Source: Candidatus Hydrogenedentota bacterium
GTDB taxonomy: Bacteria; Hydrogenedentota; Hydrogenedentia; Hydrogenedentales; SLHB01
DNA length: 64,000 nt
Reading direction: 5' to 3'
Assembly: GCA_019695095.1 (NCBI GenBank)
Contig: JAIBAQ010000005.1
Span: 25,144 to 89,143, forward strand
The notes under the pieces are model-generated. The model saw only the letters and a program-made list of their open reading frames with translations, searched no databases and was not told the DNA's origin. Positions 53,843 to 60,552 of the stretch are shown in pieces. Within the stretch, counting starts at the first letter, position 1. Every line of letters begins with the position of its first letter. The position numbers and the translations under genes are program-made.

Positions 53843-53936
53843 TGAGGGCGATTGAGCGTATATCTCGGAGCATATGGCTCGGGGATGGGCTTCGAAGTGA
53901 TGTCGATCAGGAGGAAGGACAGTACCATGATGAACT

Positions 53937-54433
53937 GGATGAAGCGGGGTGTAGTCCTTGCGGCATTGGCTGTGGCGGTTTCGGTGGGTGGAGCGCTGGT
54001 CGCATACGCCCAGGAAGCCCAGCCGGCCCCGGCCCCTGCTCCTGCTCCCGCGCCTGAGCAACCTGCTGCTCCTCCCGCGGAGCAACCCGCGCCGCCAGCC
54101 GAGCAACCGGCGCCTGGCGCAGACATTGACAAGGTCCTTGAGGAGTTGGCTAGCCTCGGGCCAGATGCCATTGCGGGACGAGTAACGGCGATGGTGAAAG
54201 ACGTTGAGAGCCTGAACGGGGAAGCCGCAAAGCTGCGCGAACAGGCAACGGATCTGGAAAACAAAGCGAACAGTCTTAAGGCGCGCATAGCCGTCATGGA
54301 GAAGTTCACGGCTGCAGTCATGGCGTCTCAGCAACCTGCCGCCGCGCCCGCGGAAGCCGCGCCGGCTGCGGCTCCGGCCGAACCTGCGCCCGCGCCTGAA
54401 CAACCCGCTCCCGCAGAGCAGCCGAAACAATAG
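53937..54433 (+). CDS. Secreted Ala/Pro-rich coiled-coil protein
   Basis: AGGAGG RBS. Signal peptide MMNWMKRGVVLAALAVAVSVGGALVAYA, (PAPA/EQPA)n repeats flanking a heptad coiled coil. Paralogous to the N-terminus of the downstream gene. Confidence 0.45.
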
Positions 54434-54445
54434 GAGGCGTACACG

Positions 54446-56164
54446 GTGGTCGCTCCGAAGTACAGATTGAAACGGCATGGCCGGCGCCTGTGTGTTGCCC
54501 TTGCCCTTCTGTTGAGTTGTGCATTTGCGCATGCCGATGGACCTGCGCCTGAGGCCATAGACGCGGCCATCGACAAGCTGGTGACCTTGGATCCGGCAAC
54601 TTTGGCCGCAAAGCTCAAGGAATACGCAAGCCAGGCGGAAGCGTGGCAAGCAGAAGCCAATACGCTGAAGCAGAAGGCAGATGAAATCGAGAATCATTCA
54701 AAAGAGCTTGCCACGCGCGTTGAGGCGCTCAAGGAACGCGCGAAGGCATTAGGCATGGCGTTGGGTGAACCGGCAACGACCATGGTGGCGGAAGCAGCTC
54801 CGGCGGCCGCTCCGAGCATGGAGATGCAAGCTCAGGCTGAAGCTGCAGCGCCGAAGGTAAATTTTCAAGAGCACATCTTGCCGATACTCAAGCAGCGTTG
54901 CGTGAAGTGCCACAATCAAGATAGTGCCAAGGGCGGTCTTGTTGTGGATACGTATGCATCGCTCATGGAAGGCGGCAGTTCGGGCGCGGTGATTGCAGCG
55001 GGACAACCCGATTCCAGCCGCTTATTTAAACTGGTGAGCCGTGCCGAAGAGCCTTATATGCCCCCTTCGGGAGATCCGCTGACAGCCGAACAGTTGGCGC
55101 TGATTAAGGATTGGATACAGTCTGGCGCGCCGCAGGATGCCAACTCAAAGGTTGCCGCAGCCGAGGCAATGGGCGCGGAGAAGAAAGACGTCTATGTGGC
55201 TGCGGCGATCGTCGACGGTCCACCACCCATGCCTGAAGTCGCGCTTCAAGCGCCCGCAGCGGAGTTGGCGAAGCGCGTTGTAGCGCGCGCCGTGGCAACG
55301 AGTCCGCGCGCGCCGTTGGCGGCTGTCGCGGGGTATAAGCAGGTCCTGCTCTACAATCTTGCGGACTACAAGTTGCTTGGCGCTCTTCCCTTTCCCGAAG
55401 GCGAGATTTACACCATTGCCTTCAGCGTTAATGGAGAACTTCTGCTCGCTGGTGGTGGCGTCGAAGGCGATTCGGGCCGAGTGGTTGTATGGAATGTGCG
55501 CAAAGCCGAACGCGCCGGCGTGTACGGGGAAGAGTACGACACGATTCTCGCGGCCGACGTCAGTCCTGACCACAAGCTGCTTGCATTGGGAGGTCCCAGC
55601 AAGAAAGTTAAGGTCTATTCTCTAGCCGACGGCGCACTCGCTTACAAGCTGGAGGACCATACCGATTGGATCACGTCGATCAAGTTCAGCCCCGACGGCG
55701 AATTGCTGGCCACCGCGGATCGCGCGGGCGGGCTTCTGCTATGGCAAGCGGCAAATGGGCGAGCCGTGGAAGCGTTGCGAGGACACACCGGCGCAATTAA
55801 CGACCTGGGATACAGCGCCGATTCTGCGTTGCTCGCGTCGGCGGGAGCCGACGGCACGGTACGTCTGTGGGACACCTGGAAGTATGCGCAGACCGCATCG
55901 ATCAGCGCGCATCCCGGCGGTGCACTGAGTGTCGCATTCAGCGCCGCAAACGAACTCGTGACGACCGGCATCGATGGTCTTACGAAACGGTGGGACACCG
56001 GCGGAAAGAACCTCGCCACGTATGAAAAACTGGCGGACTGGGGCTATCAGGCGCGCTTTGGCAATGCCGGCGCGCTGGTGCTCGCAGGAACATGGACCGG
56101 CGAAGTGTCCGTGTGGGATCTAGCCGGGGCTCGCGTGGCTACAATGAGCACCAACGCGTCGTAA
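54446..56164 (+). CDS. Secreted PSCyt1 (Planctomycete cytochrome C) domain plus WD40-repeat protein with N-terminal coiled coil
   Basis: GTG start after a TAGGAGG RBS. Signal peptide. ILPILKQRCVKCHNQDSAKGGLVVDTY (PSCyt1). About 6 WD40 repeats (GHTGAINDLGYSADSALLASAGADGTVRLWD). Confidence 0.7.
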   Translation: MVAPKYRLKRHGRRLCVALALLLSCAFAHADGPAPEAIDAAIDKLVTLDPATLAAKLKEYASQAEAWQAEANTLKQKADEIENHSKELATRVEALKERAKALGMALGEPATTMVAEAAPAAAPSMEMQAQAEAAAPKVNFQEHILPILKQRCVKCHNQDSAKGGLVVDTYASLMEGGSSGAVIAAGQPDSSRLFKLVSRAEEPYMPPSGDPLTAEQLALIKDWIQSGAPQDANSKVAAAEAMGAEKKDVYVAAAIVDGPPPMPEVALQAPAAELAKRVVARAVATSPRAPLAAVAGYKQVLLYNLADYKLLGALPFPEGEIYTIAFSVNGELLLAGGGVEGDSGRVVVWNVRKAERAGVYGEEYDTILAADVSPDHKLLALGGPSKKVKVYSLADGALAYKLEDHTDWITSIKFSPDGELLATADRAGGLLLWQAANGRAVEALRGHTGAINDLGYSADSALLASAGADGTVRLWDTWKYAQTASISAHPGGALSVAFSAANELVTTGIDGLTKRWDTGGKNLATYEKLADWGYQARFGNAGALVLAGTWTGEVSVWDLAGARVATMSTNAS

Positions 56165-56183: not shown

Positions 56184-56369
56184 CCCGGATTTCTCACGAA
56201 CACACTTGACCTTTTCTCGTAGCCAGTACGTTTGCGGGACTTACGACGAAAAACAAAGCGGTTCTCCGAAAGAAGAGTGTGTTCGCGAGAAATCCTCATG
56301 GCATAACCTCAACGTCTTGCACGTGAGCAATTTGCGTCGGCGCTCAATCGCGCCGCTGCGAAATGCGGG
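56184..56369 (+). repeat. Repeat family R2 copy 2 (~186 bp)
   Basis: About 88% identical to 28158-28343, including the 17-bp inverted repeats (ggatttctcacgaacac / gtgttcgcgagaaatcc). It fills the gap between convergent gene ends. Confidence 0.85.
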
Positions 56370-56765
56370 TTAGTGGGAACACGTGCAGGTATGGTCTCCC
56401 CCATGAATGTGGCCCGAGAAATAGGCGGCCGCGGCATCTTCGGGAGATGCTTCGGGATTCACCATGAGTGGAGTAATCCCATGCTCCTTCAATTCGCTTG
56501 CCGCGCGTGAACCCATACCGCCGGCTATAACTGCTTCGCAATCGTGCAGCAAGGCCATGAGATCCGCGTGGCCATGATGCTCACCGTGAGCGTGGCCCTC
56601 GCCGTGTCCGCAGCCCACGTGGGATGAACATGCATGGGTGTTGGCGCGTGCTTCCCTTCGGACGATTTCGTTTGCCTCCAAATCGTAAATCAAAAAGCAT
56701 AGGCTCCGTCCGAAGTGCGTCGAAATGCACTCGCCGTCCGACGAGGCAATAGCAATACGTTTCAT
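56370..56765 (-). CDS. NifX/NafY/NifB-C-terminal-like cofactor-binding domain protein (dinitrogenase FeMo-cofactor biosynthesis domain family) with His-rich insert
   Basis: MKRIAIASSDGECISTHFGRSLCFLIYDL and CEAVIAGGMGSRAASELKEHGITP match the PF02579-type fold. The insert is CSSHVGCGHGEGHAHGEHHGHAD. Start position approximate (the Met at about 56763-56765). Confidence 0.7.
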   Translation of the reverse strand: MKRIAIASSDGECISTHFGRSLCFLIYDLEANEIVRREARANTHACSSHVGCGHGEGHAHGEHHGHADLMALLHDCEAVIAGGMGSRAASELKEHGITPLMVNPEASPEDAAAAYFSGHIHGGDHTCTCSH

Positions 56766-56828
56766 TGCGGGAATCCCCCTTGGTTGTTCCTGTGACGGCA
56801 TACTGCCGACTGTATCCGTGCTTCTCTT

Positions 56829-57242
56829 CTACGTCTCACTGCGTCGCGTCCGTTGATGCCGTTGTCCACGTCCCCGGTGCTCGTGGCAACGGCGAACGCT
56901 CACTTGAGCGCATGCAGGACACGCACTTGGCTTCGATTCGCCAAGCGTGTCGCTCATGGTCACTTCACCACCCTCAATAACAAGTAAACGGCCAGCTACC
57001 AGTGCTTCCGCGACCTTCCTGCGCGCTGCTTCCACGATGCGGCCAAACGTGGCGCGCGATACGCCCATGCGTTCGGCGGCGTCTCCGTGATACAAGCCTT
57101 CCAAGTCCGCAAGCCGCAGCGCTTCAAGTTCATCAAGGCCCAGCGCAATTCGTTCAAGTCCCGCGGCAGGAATGCCCAAGGGCTTGAACGCCTTACACCC
57201 TGGCTTGAGACCGATTCTCCGGCAGCAGACAGGTCGCGACAT
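56829..57242 (-). CDS. DUF134 (UPF0251) predicted DNA-binding protein with Cys/His/Arg-rich C-terminal tail
   Basis: MSRPVCCRRIGLKPGCKAFKPLGIPAAGLERIALGLDELEALRLADLEGLYHGDAAERMGVSRATFGRIVEAARRKVAEALVAGRLLVIEGG is collinear with archaeal and clostridial DUF134 proteins (CRR...FKP...ELEA.RL.D.EGL.QEEAA.RMGVSRPTFGRIL.EAR.KVA.ALV.G..I.IEGG). Start refined from the ORF 56829..57299. Confidence 0.8.
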   Translation of the reverse strand: MSRPVCCRRIGLKPGCKAFKPLGIPAAGLERIALGLDELEALRLADLEGLYHGDAAERMGVSRATFGRIVEAARRKVAEALVAGRLLVIEGGEVTMSDTLGESKPSACPACAQVSVRRCHEHRGRGQRHQRTRRSET

Positions 57243-57270
57243 TGAGGAAGTGCTCCATGGCCACGGTTTC

Positions 57271-57292
57271 ATTATAAGCATATGCTCATAAT
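57271..57292. promoter_or_regulatory. 22-bp imperfect AT-rich palindrome (ATTATAAGCATATGCTCATAAT), candidate DtxR-family operator in a divergent promoter region
   Basis: One mismatch to perfect dyad symmetry. It lies 29 bp upstream of the DUF134 start and about 160 bp upstream of the DtxR-like gene. Confidence 0.35.
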
Positions 57293-57449
57293 TAATCAAG
57301 TCCGGTGCATGTGATCCGGGGATGATACTCGCCTCAATTCATGCAATGATTGTCTAGTGCATGTCCTTGTGTGCGCGTGATACACTCTCTTCCGGACGCT
57401 GCAGAGTGCGCAGCCTGGGCGTACGACGGGGTCCGCAGGAGAAGAACTC

Positions 57450-57920
57450 GTGCCCGATCATTCCTCGACGTCCAGACCCGCCGCGCGGGCGACTAGTCCG
57501 TCCATGGAGCAGTACATCGAGACCATCGCTTACTTGTTGACTCAAGGAAGTGTGTGCAGCGTGAGCGATATCGCGGCGCACGCCTGCGTGAGCCGTCCAG
57601 CGGCTTCGCGAGCCGTGCGCGACCTTGCGGCCAAGTCATTGGTCCAGCACAAGTCGTACGGTTATGTCGAGTTGACGGAACAAGGGCGCGCCCTGGCTCG
57701 GCGTCTTGAAGCACGGCATGCGATGCTGTTCGATTTCCTTCAGCGCGTCCTTGGATTGAGCGAAGACGATGCCAATCGAGAGGCATGCAGGCTGGAGCAT
57801 CATCTTGACGACGAGCTCGTGAAGCGCATGGGTGAATTGACGTCGTTCCTTGAAGCGGACGAGACGCGCAGCCGGCAATGGCAGCAGCGGCTCGAGCAGC
57901 TCACAAAACCGAGCATGTAG
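57450..57920 (+). CDS. DtxR/MntR-family metal-dependent transcriptional regulator
   Basis: MEQYIETIAYLLTQGSVCSVSDIAAHACVSRPAASRAVRDLAAKSLV...YGYVELTEQGRALARRLEARHAMLFDFLQRVLGLSEDDANREACRLEHHL matches the DtxR HTH plus dimerisation and metal-site consensus. GTG start after an AGGAGAAG RBS. Confidence 0.7.
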   Translation: MPDHSSTSRPAARATSPSMEQYIETIAYLLTQGSVCSVSDIAAHACVSRPAASRAVRDLAAKSLVQHKSYGYVELTEQGRALARRLEARHAMLFDFLQRVLGLSEDDANREACRLEHHLDDELVKRMGELTSFLEADETRSRQWQQRLEQLTKPSM

Positions 57921-57967
57921 CGGCGGCGTTTGCCGCATTTGGGGTAGACAATTCCGGGGAAGTCATC

Positions 57968-59257
57968 GTGAGAACCATTTTGGTTGCAGGCGTCCTTGTG
58001 TCTGTTGGGATCGCAGCCGGATACATCGGTGTTCTTCTCTATGCGCCCAAGGAGGTCGCGTCGGCAGTCGAGGCTGCCAAAGCAGCCGGGTACCCGGTGA
58101 CCGTCGAAGAGCTGGACGCGTGGTATCAACTTTCAGCGGATAGAATCAATGCGTCCGACCTCTATATGAAAGCCTTCGAATTGGACGCGAAATCCGGCTC
58201 CGCCTTGTCCGAGAAATCGTTGCCGTTCGTGGGCGAGGGGGCTCTCCCCGATTTCAGTGTGCCTTTGCCTGAGGCGCAGCGGACATCCGCAACCAATTAT
58301 CTTGCGTCGAAAGCGGAAGTGCTGAAGGCTTTGCACGAGGCAAGCGCGACATCGGCATGCCGGTATGATTTTCGAATTGGTGAAGCAGGGCCGGACGATC
58401 TTCCGCATCTGAATGGGTTGCGCCACGCCGTGCAATTGCTTGCCCTGGAGTCATGTGTAGCCGCGGAAGACAAGCAGGGCAATGCAGCAGTTGGCGCGCT
58501 TATGGCGGGCTATGCCGCCGCAAGCAGTCTGAGGGATGAACCCATGCTTGCGTCGCAATTGGCGCGCGTTGCCAGTGTGTCGGCAATGACCGAAGCTCTT
58601 GAGCGGGTGCTCAATCACGCAGAGCTGGATAACATGCAGCTCAGTCAGGTTCTGAGTTCCGTATCGTTTTCTGAAGCGCCTCACGCATTCGAGCGCGCAT
58701 TTGCCGGAGAACGCTGCTTCGGTCTGGCCGCGTTTCCCGATGAACCTGCGGGCGTAACGGAAGACGGCGATACGACGATCATGGGCCAATGTTACGCGTT
58801 GATGGGCGTTCGCAGGTTGGACACGTGGGCGTTCGCAGTATTCATGGAGGAACTAATCGCGGCATCGGAAGAACCATTGCATCAGCGGCGAACGGCCTAC
58901 AAGGAATGGTCAACTCGCGTCGACAAACTGCCGGCGATTTTCGTAATCACGAAGCACAAGCTGGACGAATTGGAAAAGGCGACCACCGCAGATTTGAAGG
59001 GATCGGCCTTGTTGCGCGTGGCAACTGCCGCGATTGCCGTTGAGCAGTATCAGAACGACGCTGGCCGGCTGCCGGAGTCGCTGGATGCACTCGTGCCGCG
59101 TTATCTTGAAGTGGTGCCGGGGGACCCTTTCGCTCCGGCGCCGATTCGATACGAAAGCTCGGGGATTCGTTCGGAAGTCTCGAGTGTGGGTCTCGATAGC
59201 GCGCCGGATAGCGGCCTTACGACAGACGACGACATCATCGTAACGGTAGTGCACTGA
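57968..59257 (+). CDS. Hypothetical membrane-anchored (periplasmic) protein
   Basis: Start refined to a GTG after GGGGAAG that avoids overlap with the regulator gene. N-terminal TM ILVAGVLVSVGIAAGYIGVLLYA. No domain recognised. Confidence 0.4.
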   Translation: MRTILVAGVLVSVGIAAGYIGVLLYAPKEVASAVEAAKAAGYPVTVEELDAWYQLSADRINASDLYMKAFELDAKSGSALSEKSLPFVGEGALPDFSVPLPEAQRTSATNYLASKAEVLKALHEASATSACRYDFRIGEAGPDDLPHLNGLRHAVQLLALESCVAAEDKQGNAAVGALMAGYAAASSLRDEPMLASQLARVASVSAMTEALERVLNHAELDNMQLSQVLSSVSFSEAPHAFERAFAGERCFGLAAFPDEPAGVTEDGDTTIMGQCYALMGVRRLDTWAFAVFMEELIAASEEPLHQRRTAYKEWSTRVDKLPAIFVITKHKLDELEKATTADLKGSALLRVATAAIAVEQYQNDAGRLPESLDALVPRYLEVVPGDPFAPAPIRYESSGIRSEVSSVGLDSAPDSGLTTDDDIIVTVVH

Positions 59258-59385
59258 CAGGATGCACGGGGGCAGAGGGCTGTCCGCTGCAAACGACTAC
59301 TTGGCAACGGTTGTGCATGGTCCGTATAATGCCGGAATCTTTGGGCAACCAATCGAATAATGTAACGGCAAGGAGGGGATTCCAT

Positions 59386-60552
59386 ATGGCCAAGAAAACG
59401 CTGAATGTCGCGATGATCGGCGCGCAATTCATGGGGAAGACGCACAGCAACGCATGGCGTAAAGTGGGGATGTTCTTCGATCTTCCGGTCACGCCTGTGA
59501 TGAAAGTCCTTTGCGGAAAGTTTCCGGAGGAAGTGAAAGTCGCCGAGAAATGGGGCTGGCAAGAGACAAGCCTTGATTGGGAGGCGGTGGTGAATCGCCC
59601 GGATATCGACATCATCGACATCTGCACGCCGAATTTCCTGCATCCGACCATTGCGATCGCGGCGGCGAAAGCGGGCAAGCAGATCGTGTGCGAAAAGCCG
59701 CTTGCCAATTCGCTGAAAGAGGCCAACGACATGTTGAAGGCCGTGCAGAAAGCCGGCGTGAATCACATGTGCGGATTCTCTTACCGCTTTGCGCCGGCCG
59801 TGACGACCATCAAGAACATGATCGCGCGCGGCGAACTTGGCCGCATCTTCCACTTCCGCGCCGCCTACCAGCAGGACTGGATCGTCGACCCCAATTTCCC
59901 GCGTGTGTGGCGCCTCGTGAAGAAGCACACGGGGTCGGGTGCTTTGGGCGATATCGGCGCGCACATTGTCGATCTTTGCCACTATTTGGTCGGGCAAGTC
60001 GACGAAGTATCGGGCGCCATGCAGACCTTCATCAAGAAGCGCCCGCTTACGGAAAGCGACACGGGAATCTCAGGCAAGTCCGGCGAGAAGAAACTGGGGA
60101 AGATGGGCGAAGTGGACGTAGACGATGCAGCGATCTTCCTTGGACGCATCAAGGATGCCGACACGCTTGCGACGTTTGAAGCGACGCGTTTTGCGCCCGG
60201 ACGCAGGAATTACAACACGATCGAGATCTATGGAAGCGAAGGGGCCGTGTGCTGGAATCAGGAGGACATGGACTACTTCGAGTACTTCAACCGAAACGAT
60301 CCGCCGCACTTGCAGGGTTTCCGGCGCGTCCACGCGTCCGATCCGGTACACCCCTACATGAAGGCGTGGTGGCCGTCGGGGCACATTATCGGTTATGAAC
60401 ACTTGTTCGTCCACGAGGTTTATGACTTCCTCACGCAACTCGGCAAGAAGAAGGTCACGTATTCGACGTTCGAAGACGGTGTCAACTGCCAGCGTGTTCT
60501 TGAAGCCGTCGAGAAGTCCGCGAACAGCAAGAAGTGGGTGAAGGTGAAGTAA
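59386..60552 (+). CDS. Gfo/Idh/MocA-family NAD(P)-dependent oxidoreductase
   Basis: AAGGAGGGG RBS. LNVAMIGAQFMGKTHSNAW Rossmann N-terminus. Consensus EKP motif (QIVCEKPLAN). Confidence 0.8.
   Translation: MAKKTLNVAMIGAQFMGKTHSNAWRKVGMFFDLPVTPVMKVLCGKFPEEVKVAEKWGWQETSLDWEAVVNRPDIDIIDICTPNFLHPTIAIAAAKAGKQIVCEKPLANSLKEANDMLKAVQKAGVNHMCGFSYRFAPAVTTIKNMIARGELGRIFHFRAAYQQDWIVDPNFPRVWRLVKKHTGSGALGDIGAHIVDLCHYLVGQVDEVSGAMQTFIKKRPLTESDTGISGKSGEKKLGKMGEVDVDDAAIFLGRIKDADTLATFEATRFAPGRRNYNTIEIYGSEGAVCWNQEDMDYFEYFNRNDPPHLQGFRRVHASDPVHPYMKAWWPSGHIIGYEHLFVHEVYDFLTQLGKKKVTYSTFEDGVNCQRVLEAVEKSANSKKWVKVK

Follow-up and report, generated by a model that had tools for sequence, protein, structure and literature searches.

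A near-invariant palindrome in about 20 phylum-level bacterial groups as the probable operator of DUF134 proteins, with a NifX-like protein as a possible sensor partner

In Desulfovibrio vulgaris Hildenborough, the orange protein (ORP) gene cluster DVU2103-DVU2109 encodes a Nitro_FeMo-Co protein (Orp8), an Mrp/NBP35 ATPase combined with a Nitro_FeMo-Co ('Di-Nase') domain (Orp9) and two MinD-like ATPases with [4Fe-4S] motifs, Orp3 and Orp4 (PMC6345978); the orp operons depend on sigma-54 and on activation by OrpR, an Fe-S enhancer-binding protein that acts together with IHF (PMC8359166, PMC3897727). The families of Orp8, Orp9 and Orp3/4 are also those found, in other phyla, under the 20-base-pair (bp) palindrome analyzed here. 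This element lies in a 64,000-nucleotide (nt) stretch of a metagenome-assembled Candidatus Hydrogenedentota genome (GenBank assembly GCA_019695095.1, contig JAIBAQ010000005.1, positions 25,144 to 89,143; the whole stretch is hereafter 'the window'), upstream of two genes that code for a DUF134 (UPF0251) protein and a NifX-like protein and are transcribed divergently from a gene for a DtxR/MntR-family regulator. The first-pass annotation of the window had placed the three genes and the palindrome correctly (Table 1) and had taken the palindrome for a DtxR-family operator. Comparison of the sequences across bacteria points elsewhere: there is a good probability, of three in four or somewhat better, that the palindrome serves as operator for the DUF134 family and not for DtxR.

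The likeness of the window pair to the orp cluster extends to an anaerobe-specific character. The two differ in that sigma-54 and OrpR operate there, whereas the window pair is under a sigma-70-type promoter overlapped by the palindrome, and in that the pair stands alone in the window, where it has neither Mrp nor MinD genes as neighbours. The ORP itself is remote from the NifX-like protein of the window (2wfb, Foldseek E 0.5, 17% identity). Classification of the pair as an ORP system was considered and dropped, with Mrp/NBP35, MinD-Fer4 and sigma-54/OrpR control all wanting. DVU2107, the first gene of orp7-8-9, presumably encodes a DUF134 protein, which is taken as a lead only. With regard to the operator, the parallels are the HrcA/CIRCE system and the NrdR boxes, pan-phylum conserved operator systems in which, as with DUF134, one factor family is combined with a near-invariant inverted repeat over many phyla and is usually autoregulated, although the protein family and the targets differ. 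In the literature searched, neither a function nor a binding site of DUF134 is described, the operator sequence is likewise absent, and UPF0251 appears only as an incidental entry in a mutation table. The assignment of the site to the DUF134 family, the near-invariance of the site across phyla and the NifX fold as a likely sensor partner all appear to be new.

Within the window, the palindrome is present in a single copy, with no others found when 3 mismatches are allowed, and the dinucleotide-shuffled window sequence has no match even at that tolerance; the relaxed core pattern matches 8 times in the window compared with 3.7 expected, which is not significant. The half-sites of the palindrome, TTATGAGCAT, have their centres 10 bp apart, a spacing that would fit a dimer bound on one face of the DNA. 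The promoter region on the DUF134 strand reads cTTGATTaATTATGAGCATATGCTTATAATg, and its sigma-70 promoter, which agrees with the consensus at 10 of 12 positions, is the sole promoter-like site in a promoter scan of positions 56200-58000. From the mapped positions of the two hexamers, it follows that the 20-bp core occupies the spacer and the -10 of this promoter; the core ends 29 nt before the DUF134 ATG. A longer DUF134 open reading frame (ORF), with a TTG start at 57299, is not credible because this TTG falls inside the -35. The same arrangement of promoter and site is found in the orthologous loci L001, L002 and L003. In the first two, the DUF134 protein is 65% identical to that of the window by BLASTP (70% in the alignment) and the site reads TTGACAacATTATGAGTATATGCTTATAAT; in L003, from a Hydrogenedentales metagenome-assembled genome (MAG), TTGACAaATTATGAGCATATGCTCATAAT lies upstream of the DUF134 and NifX-like pair. 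The view of the palindrome as a real, operator-like element is borne out by its conservation in these three loci.

The reach of the site was assessed by scanning the GTDB representatives, one genome per species, with the exact pattern TTATRAGYATATRCTYATAA. There are at least 120 exact copies among these species-representative genomes and, by record title, the matches listed span about 20 phylum-level groups, namely Chloroflexota (Dehalococcoidia), Ignavibacteriota with Bacteroidota and Chlorobi, Desulfobacterota with Thermodesulfobacteriota, Planctomycetota, Nitrospirota, Omnitrophota, Caldisericota, Bacillota, Spirochaetota, Acidobacteriota, Verrucomicrobiota, Myxococcota, Actinomycetota, Zixibacteria, Sumerlaeota, Fibrobacterota, Glassbacteria, WOR-3 and Hydrogenedentes. 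In 87 of the 120 matches listed, a six-frame ORF search finds a DUF134 ORF that is directed away from the site and begins within about 60 nt of it; with L001-L003 added, DUF134 adjoins the site in 90 of 123 loci. The reverse test started from the protein: 80 DUF134 loci from JGI metagenomes were picked by protein similarity alone, independently of the palindrome, and the 200 nt upstream of each DUF134 gene were searched for TTATGAGCATATGCTCATAA. The site is present with at most 3 mismatches in 71 of these 80 loci, and with at most 5 in 74, its end usually lying 18-33 nt before the start codon, compared with 319 background segments, each 210 nt long and drawn from these loci, in which the best match never has fewer than 6 mismatches.

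The matrix built from 146 sites carries more than 1.3 bits at 19 of the 20 positions and is strongest in the central 8 bases, GCATATGC, which are essentially invariant. The single weak position is 16 (C or T), where the gene-proximal T occurs in 67 loci and the mirror change in 4; this gene-proximal C-to-T change completes a TATAAT -10. As in the window, a -35-like TTGnnn hexamer ends 0-4 nt upstream of the palindrome in 96 of the 146 loci. Other lineages have other architectures: in the Ignavibacteriota and Bacteroidota loci, the palindrome is abutted on its upstream side by a TAnnTTTG motif, the Bacteroidetes -7 promoter element, and in the Dehalococcoidia and Clostridia loci, a separate -10 is found just upstream. 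Whichever of these architectures is considered, the core promoter or the start of transcription is overlapped by the site, whose position is, therefore, typical of a repressor. Symmetric double changes in the operator, of the TTATGGGCATATGCCCATAA type, are observed in three metagenome loci (L127, L153 and L155); such changes in both half-sites would fit co-evolution with a dimeric protein.

Because a 9-bp hairpin is possible, and the 3' arm of the palindrome doubles as the -10, the element could be thought of as an RNA hairpin in the 5' leader, or else as an unusually conserved core promoter that has no dedicated binding protein. Either explanation fares poorly when confronted with the details. 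In the commonest architecture, the element is situated between the -35 and the -10 and, being upstream of the transcription start, is not transcribed; its predicted fold is no better than that of shuffled sequence (z = -0.65), and it has no Rfam match. It is the sequence rather than the pairing that is conserved, and a promoter needs two hexamers, yet the invariance peaks at the centre of the palindrome. In Bacteroidota, Ignavibacteriota and Dehalococcoidia, the element is not itself the promoter because it lies downstream of a TAnnTTTG box or of a separate -10. The chance that the element is an RNA structure or a bare promoter is, accordingly, put as very slim. A resemblance of the half-site TATGA to the Escherichia coli NikR half-site GTATGA was also set aside, given a different spacing and the lack of any Ni transporter or NikR gene associated with the site.

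The predicted DNA-binding protein that is consistently encoded at the site, DUF134, matches PF02001 in the window with 86.8 bits (cut-off 27; E = 1.6e-24) and has 3313 homologues at E <= 0.001, with weak Pfam matches to sigma-70 region 4 (Sigma70_r4_2). The AlphaFold2 (AF2) model of the window protein, confident for residues 1-98, predicts helices at 36-47, 52-59 and 63-83 and short flanking strands. In Foldseek comparisons, the modelled helix-turn-helix superposes at 0.5-1 A on the DeoR DNA-binding domain and on ECF sigma region 4, in the latter case over 43-52 residues; these matches cover the helix-turn-helix only, with no full-length structural relative found, and searches by sequence return no solved relative of DUF134, just weak zinc-ribbon matches (HypA, rubrerythrin). 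Compared with ECF sigma region 4, DUF134 has no region 2, possesses an N-terminal strand element of its own with Cys-Arg-Arg and, usually, a C-terminal zinc ribbon; given these features and the two-fold symmetric target, it is likely to be a classical dimeric regulator and not a sigma factor.

Among 146 homologues, the SRxTFGR start of the recognition helix (S62, R63, T65, F66 and R68) is invariant or nearly so; in the protein as a whole, R3, P4, R8, S62, R63 and T65 never vary, and C7, R9, F66, G67 and R68 hardly do. The window protein has all of these, with an intact M-x-R-P-x-x-C-R-R motif and an intact S-R-x-T-F-G-R helix. The invariance of the SRxTFGR motif parallels that of the operator. 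Residue 64, the one variable residue of the motif, shows the strongest association with the operator variant of all the protein columns tested: Gln64 is present at 24 of the 26 variant (G6/C15) sites versus 43 of the 120 consensus sites, a covariation that is suggestive.

The C-terminal part of the family is less uniform. Most DUF134 homologues end with a four-Cys zinc ribbon, FxCxxCxHxW...CPxC (PF27353). Alignments with 11 and 119 homologues show that the window protein has undergone an in-frame deletion of about 15 residues that removed the first CxxC knuckle and left S-A-C-P-A-C-A-Q-V-S-V-R-R-C-H-E-H, i.e. CPAC and a later C-H-x-H, a tail that is disordered in the AF2 model. What had been described as an extra Cys/His/Arg-rich tail is, because of the lost knuckle, better understood as the remnant of a truncated ribbon. 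Many DUF134 proteins (ORFs of about 100 amino acids) lack the ribbon altogether, and the ribbon is, therefore, accessory.

Not all sites stand next to DUF134. The 33 matches listed (about 27%) without an adjacent DUF134 gene include ten loci with Nitro_FeMo-Co genes downstream and one where the site precedes an Mrp/NBP35 ATPase gene in an operon whose last gene encodes a DUF134-NifX fusion; further genes under such sites code for a CbiA/MinD ATPase with ferredoxin motifs (CbiA plus Fer4), DUF5320, an ARMT1-like protein and a RACo-like protein. Mrp/NBP35 is present in 27 of the 200 loci fetched, MinD-Fer4 in 35 and DUF5320 in 13, and NifX-like ORFs are found in 132 of 203 loci (L001-L003 counted). 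DUF5320 (MPRGDRTGPxGxGPMTGRGxGxC...) recurs under or beside the palindrome and DUF134, for example in L047 and L087. In three Chlorobi loci (L012, L058 and L090), an OsmC-like gene (peroxiredoxin fold) follows the palindrome and DUF134 is 0.5-1.6 kb away, a hint that the regulon may include a redox or thiol component. In a Chlorobium MAG (L009, 4149-4168), the palindrome is found before a gene for an 86-amino-acid stand-alone zinc-ribbon protein, MEQRTFYCADCSHTWSVPFGTGRPQSCPECG, a homologue of the ribbon at the C-terminus of DUF134, as though this module could be produced on its own from a copy of the operator. A few variants composed of A and T only (TTATAAGTATATACTTATAA in L074 and L104, for instance) appear to be matches by chance. 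The candidate regulon would, then, consist of NifX-like carriers, Mrp/NBP35, MinD-ferredoxin ATPases, DUF5320 and OsmC-like proteins.

The same 27% of exact copies listed that are not beside DUF134, and the correlative nature of the co-localisation as such, leave some room for another widely conserved regulator, encoded elsewhere, of which DUF134 would be merely the commonest target. This is unlikely, although less so than the RNA or bare-promoter explanation: DUF134 is the sole predicted DNA-binding protein that is consistently encoded at the site, the sites away from it precede genes that share operons with DUF134 elsewhere, and the variation in the operator follows that at residue 64 in the recognition helix of DUF134.

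The divergent DtxR-like protein of the window is a credible regulator in its own right. It matches PF01325 with 27.8 bits (cut-off 26) and PF02742 with 67.2 bits (cut-off 27), and scores below the MntR equivalog cut-offs (82.8 versus 153 and 79.6 versus 138). The closest solved relative is Bacillus subtilis MntR (1.5e-17), to which it is alike in its length of 156 amino acids and in having both family domains. At the six MntR metal-ligand positions, E11, H77, E102 and H103 are kept, D8 is replaced by Q and E99 by C; the Cys at the E99 position corresponds to Cys102 of the Fe-sensing DtxR/IdeR. Given the four ligands kept and the DtxR-like Cys, the protein is probably a functional metal sensor. 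Were the palindrome its operator, the DUF134 and NifX-like pair would come under Fe/Mn control, and the site does have the right appearance, being AT-rich, 20-22 bp long, two-fold symmetric and located between both genes, with an AGC-N4-GCT core that the Escherichia coli MntR box has as well; moreover, the adjacency is conserved in one further genome, in L001, which is syntenic with the window. The distribution of the site, however, tells against this explanation. None of the 200 loci with the site or DUF134 encodes a DtxR homologue; in L003, the site is present and the place of DtxR is filled by a 955-amino-acid protein; and, conversely, neither the palindrome (9 and 10 mismatches in the best matches) nor a DUF134 neighbour accompanies the DtxR orthologues with 82% (L208) and 71% (L209) identity, L208 having a 357-amino-acid divergent neighbour where the window has DUF134. 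More distant DtxR homologues (54-65% identity) have unrelated surroundings: DsbD_N, an ABC transporter, or an RND pump together with an Alginate_exp porin. None of the extra copies listed precedes a recognisable metal transporter gene, the place where the first-pass annotation had proposed to look for further copies. DtxR-family operators vary (DtxR, IdeR, MntR and SloR boxes), and invariance across about 20 phyla suits the invariant recognition helix of DUF134, not such variable operators.

The geometry of the intergenic region leads to the same place. Rather than one shared promoter region, as originally proposed, the 208 nt between DUF134 and DtxR hold two separate promoters, back to back. 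The palindrome lies directly on the DUF134 -10, and its centre is about 110 nt upstream of the probable transcription start of DtxR, as placed by the conserved extended -10. The window, L001, L208 and, in part, L209 share a block composed of TGnTACACT, a leader of about 50 nt (GTGCGCAnCCTGGGCG...), AGGAGA and GTG; the conservation of this leader exceeds the needs of a promoter, so that an operator of the regulator itself, or a leader element, could lie within it. No convincing palindromic operator conserved upstream of DtxR was found in these four loci. Control of the palindrome by DtxR is hence given a very small probability, and the DtxR gene seems to be a lineage-specific neighbour in a separate transcription unit, with no demonstrable link to the palindrome. 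The locus is probably best described as two independent units, back to back: the DUF134 and NifX-like operon on one side and the DtxR/MntR-like unit on the other. The intergenic region also contains a 13-nt direct repeat, GTCCGGTGCATGT at 57300-57312 and GTCTAGTGCATGT at 57352-57364, spaced 52 nt. L001 also has the second copy (CTAGTGCATG), and L208 has part of it, in a position some 25 nt upstream of the -10 of DtxR.

The second gene of the DUF134 operon encodes a protein that matches PF02579 (Nitro_FeMo-Co) with 66.9 bits (cut-off 26.3; E = 2e-18) and falls far below the equivalog cut-offs for NifX, NifB and MrpORP (TIGR02663, 29.9 bits versus 112). Like the DtxR protein, it is 100% identical to a Candidatus Hydrogenedentes protein at NCBI. 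The AF2 model is mediocre (pLDDT 67), because only four homologues were found, and leaves the His-rich loop at low confidence, disordered; the best Foldseek matches of the modelled fold are PH0822, NafY, NifX, TM1816 and, weakly, the Desulfovibrio gigas orange protein. The protein, thus, has in common with NifX, NafY and the C-terminal domain of NifB the PF02579 domain and the fold, and, of the proteins with solved structures, the NafY core (1p90) and NifX (9ian) are closest to it in sequence, the latter being without the His/Cys-rich loop and the C-terminal HTCTCSH of the window protein. It differs from carriers of the NifX type in being co-transcribed with a DNA-binding domain and, in four lineages, fused to one: single polypeptides with PF02001 followed by PF02579 are encoded in Dehalococcoidaceae, Ignavibacteriota, Caldisericia and Spirochaetaceae, one locus each, and domain fusion is a classical sign of physical or functional partnership. 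An identity with NifX proper, and a place in the nitrogenase cofactor pathway, were discarded given the TIGR02663 score and the missing nif neighbourhood: the neighbours of the pair are genes for a PSCyt1-WD40 protein, DtxR and a GFO/IDH/MocA oxidoreductase, and the flanks of the pair are free of nif genes in the window, in L001 and in L003. More generally, the DUF134 and NifX-like module is widespread and is not embedded in nif or hydrogenase-maturation clusters.

The four close homologues detected by a word-indexed search, all on Hydrogenedentes-type contigs and 76-82% identical, keep the loop as N-T-H-A-C-S-x-H-V-G-C-G-H-x-E-x-H-A-H-G-x-H-x-x-H, with invariant ligand-type residues, and the C-terminus as G-G-D/E-H-T-C-x-C-S-H. 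The His-rich loop itself had been noted earlier, correctly, but as unusual; loops with at least 5 His at the equivalent position are present in 38 of 151 NifX-like ORFs from DUF134- or palindrome-selected loci, in many phyla, and the ORFs with such a loop usually have the C-terminal Cys/His motif as well. By comparison of these ORFs, the loop is taken to be a subfamily trait, not a peculiarity of the window locus.

Taken together, the site, the promoter and the two proteins probably represent an autoregulated DUF134 repressor with the NifX-like partner as its likely cofactor or metal sensor, an autoregulated helix-turn-helix repressor on its own promoter being of the textbook kind. A DUF134 dimer would bind the 20-bp palindrome through its sigma-region-4-like helix-turn-helix (SRxTFGR) and, once bound, would occlude RNA polymerase and so repress its own operon, including the NifX-like gene. 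The NifX-like protein would bind a metal or metal-sulfur species through its His and Cys residues, possibly at the cofactor site of NifX/NafY, and, when loaded, would alter the binding of DUF134, resulting in feedback control of the synthesis of the carrier. Considered separately, the sensor role of the NifX-like protein comes to a little under an even chance. More tentative still, and somewhat on the doubtful side, is the broadest formulation, in which DUF134 and the NifX/NafY-fold protein form an undescribed pan-bacterial, anaerobe-associated two-part transcription switch that employs a cofactor-carrier fold to sense a metal or metal-sulfur cluster, acts through a near-invariant operator in about 20 phyla and controls an ORP-type gene set. 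As for the metal-handling module suggested in the first-pass annotation, the pair is indeed widespread and plausibly handles a metal or metal-cluster cofactor, whereas the coupling to DtxR is unsupported.

Several observations weigh against the repressor-and-sensor reading or narrow it. A NifX-like gene is the commonest operon partner of DUF134 and follows it directly in 78 of the 154 loci in which the sequence extends far enough; because this is just about half, the sensor role of the NifX-like protein is not universal; DUF134's own conserved cysteines (C7 and those of the ribbon) could be the sensor instead, and the window protein, with its truncated ribbon, could be regulated unlike typical members of the family. 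The association between residue 64 and operator positions 6 and 15 (Fisher, 8e-8) is uncorrected for phylogeny. The chance expectation for the genome scan is about 17 copies, by our own estimate that assumes uniform base composition. Finally, there are no archaeal loci among the scan matches listed, though DUF134 also exists in archaea.

Table 1. Features of the locus (window coordinates; aa, amino acids)
Feature	Position	Strand	Details
Palindrome	57271-57292		22 bp; ATTATAAGCATATGCTCATAAT; 10 of 11 positions pair
Operator core	57272-57291	-	20 bp; TTATGAGCATATGCTTATAA on the DUF134 strand; one mismatch to consensus
Sigma-70 promoter of the DUF134 and NifX-like operon	57271-57299	-	-35 TTGATT 57299-57294; 17-nt spacer; -10 TATAAT 57276-57271
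DUF134/UPF0251 gene	56829-57242	-	137 aa from MSRPV; 100% identical to a Hydrogenedentes protein at NCBI
DUF134 helix-turn-helix (predicted)	56994-57089	-	Residues 52-83; recognition motif S62-R63-A64-T65-F66-G67-R68
DUF134 zinc ribbon remnant	56877-56948	-	Residues ~99-122, SACPACAQVSVRRCHEH
NifX-like gene, ORF	56370-56801	-	Likely true start MKRIA at 56765, 131 aa, in agreement with the NCBI protein
NifX-like coding region from MKRIA start	56370-56765	-	131 aa; operon gene 2
His/Cys-rich loop of the NifX-like protein	56568-56636	-	Residues 44-66, HACSSHVGCGHGEGHAHGEHHGH
C-terminus of the NifX-like protein	56373-56402	-	GGDHTCTCSH
DtxR/MntR-family gene	57450-57920	+	156 aa; PF02742 and PF01325; two-domain MntR-like architecture
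DtxR promoter and leader	57378-57442	+	Extended -10 TGaTACACT 57378-57386; ribosome-binding site AGGAGA 57437-57442; GTG 57450
PSCyt1 (Planctomycete cytochrome c) and WD40 beta-propeller gene	54446-56164	+	Convergent to the NifX-like gene
430-459-aa ORF	57878-59257	+	Directly after the DtxR gene, overlapping its end
GFO/IDH/MocA oxidoreductase gene	59311-60552	+	Top NCBIfam match levoglucosan dehydrogenase, 379 bits, below the 650 cut-off

The surroundings of the two units (Table 1) are partly conserved in the related loci. The PSCyt1-WD40 neighbour of the NifX-like gene is kept in L001 and L003; in the window, it is preceded by a 193-amino-acid ORF (53852-54433, plus strand), Ala/Pro-rich and coiled-coil-like. 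The 430-459-amino-acid ORF, probably co-transcribed with the DtxR gene, has an N-terminal hydrophobic segment and is kept in the syntenic L001 (430 amino acids), with zero matches in Pfam and NCBIfam searches. In L001, a GFO/IDH/MocA homologue is followed by an AP_endonuc_2 (sugar-phosphate isomerase-type) gene.

For genome annotation, the case of this locus is a caution that intergenic palindromes are not to be assigned to the nearest regulator. For DUF134/UPF0251, a large family with more than 3,000 matches, the analysis provides a defined, predicted 20-bp operator, a likely mode of autorepression and a candidate regulon, which overlaps the orange-protein system of sulfate reducers. Beyond nitrogenase assembly, it also suggests that a protein with the NifX/NafY fold may act in regulation.

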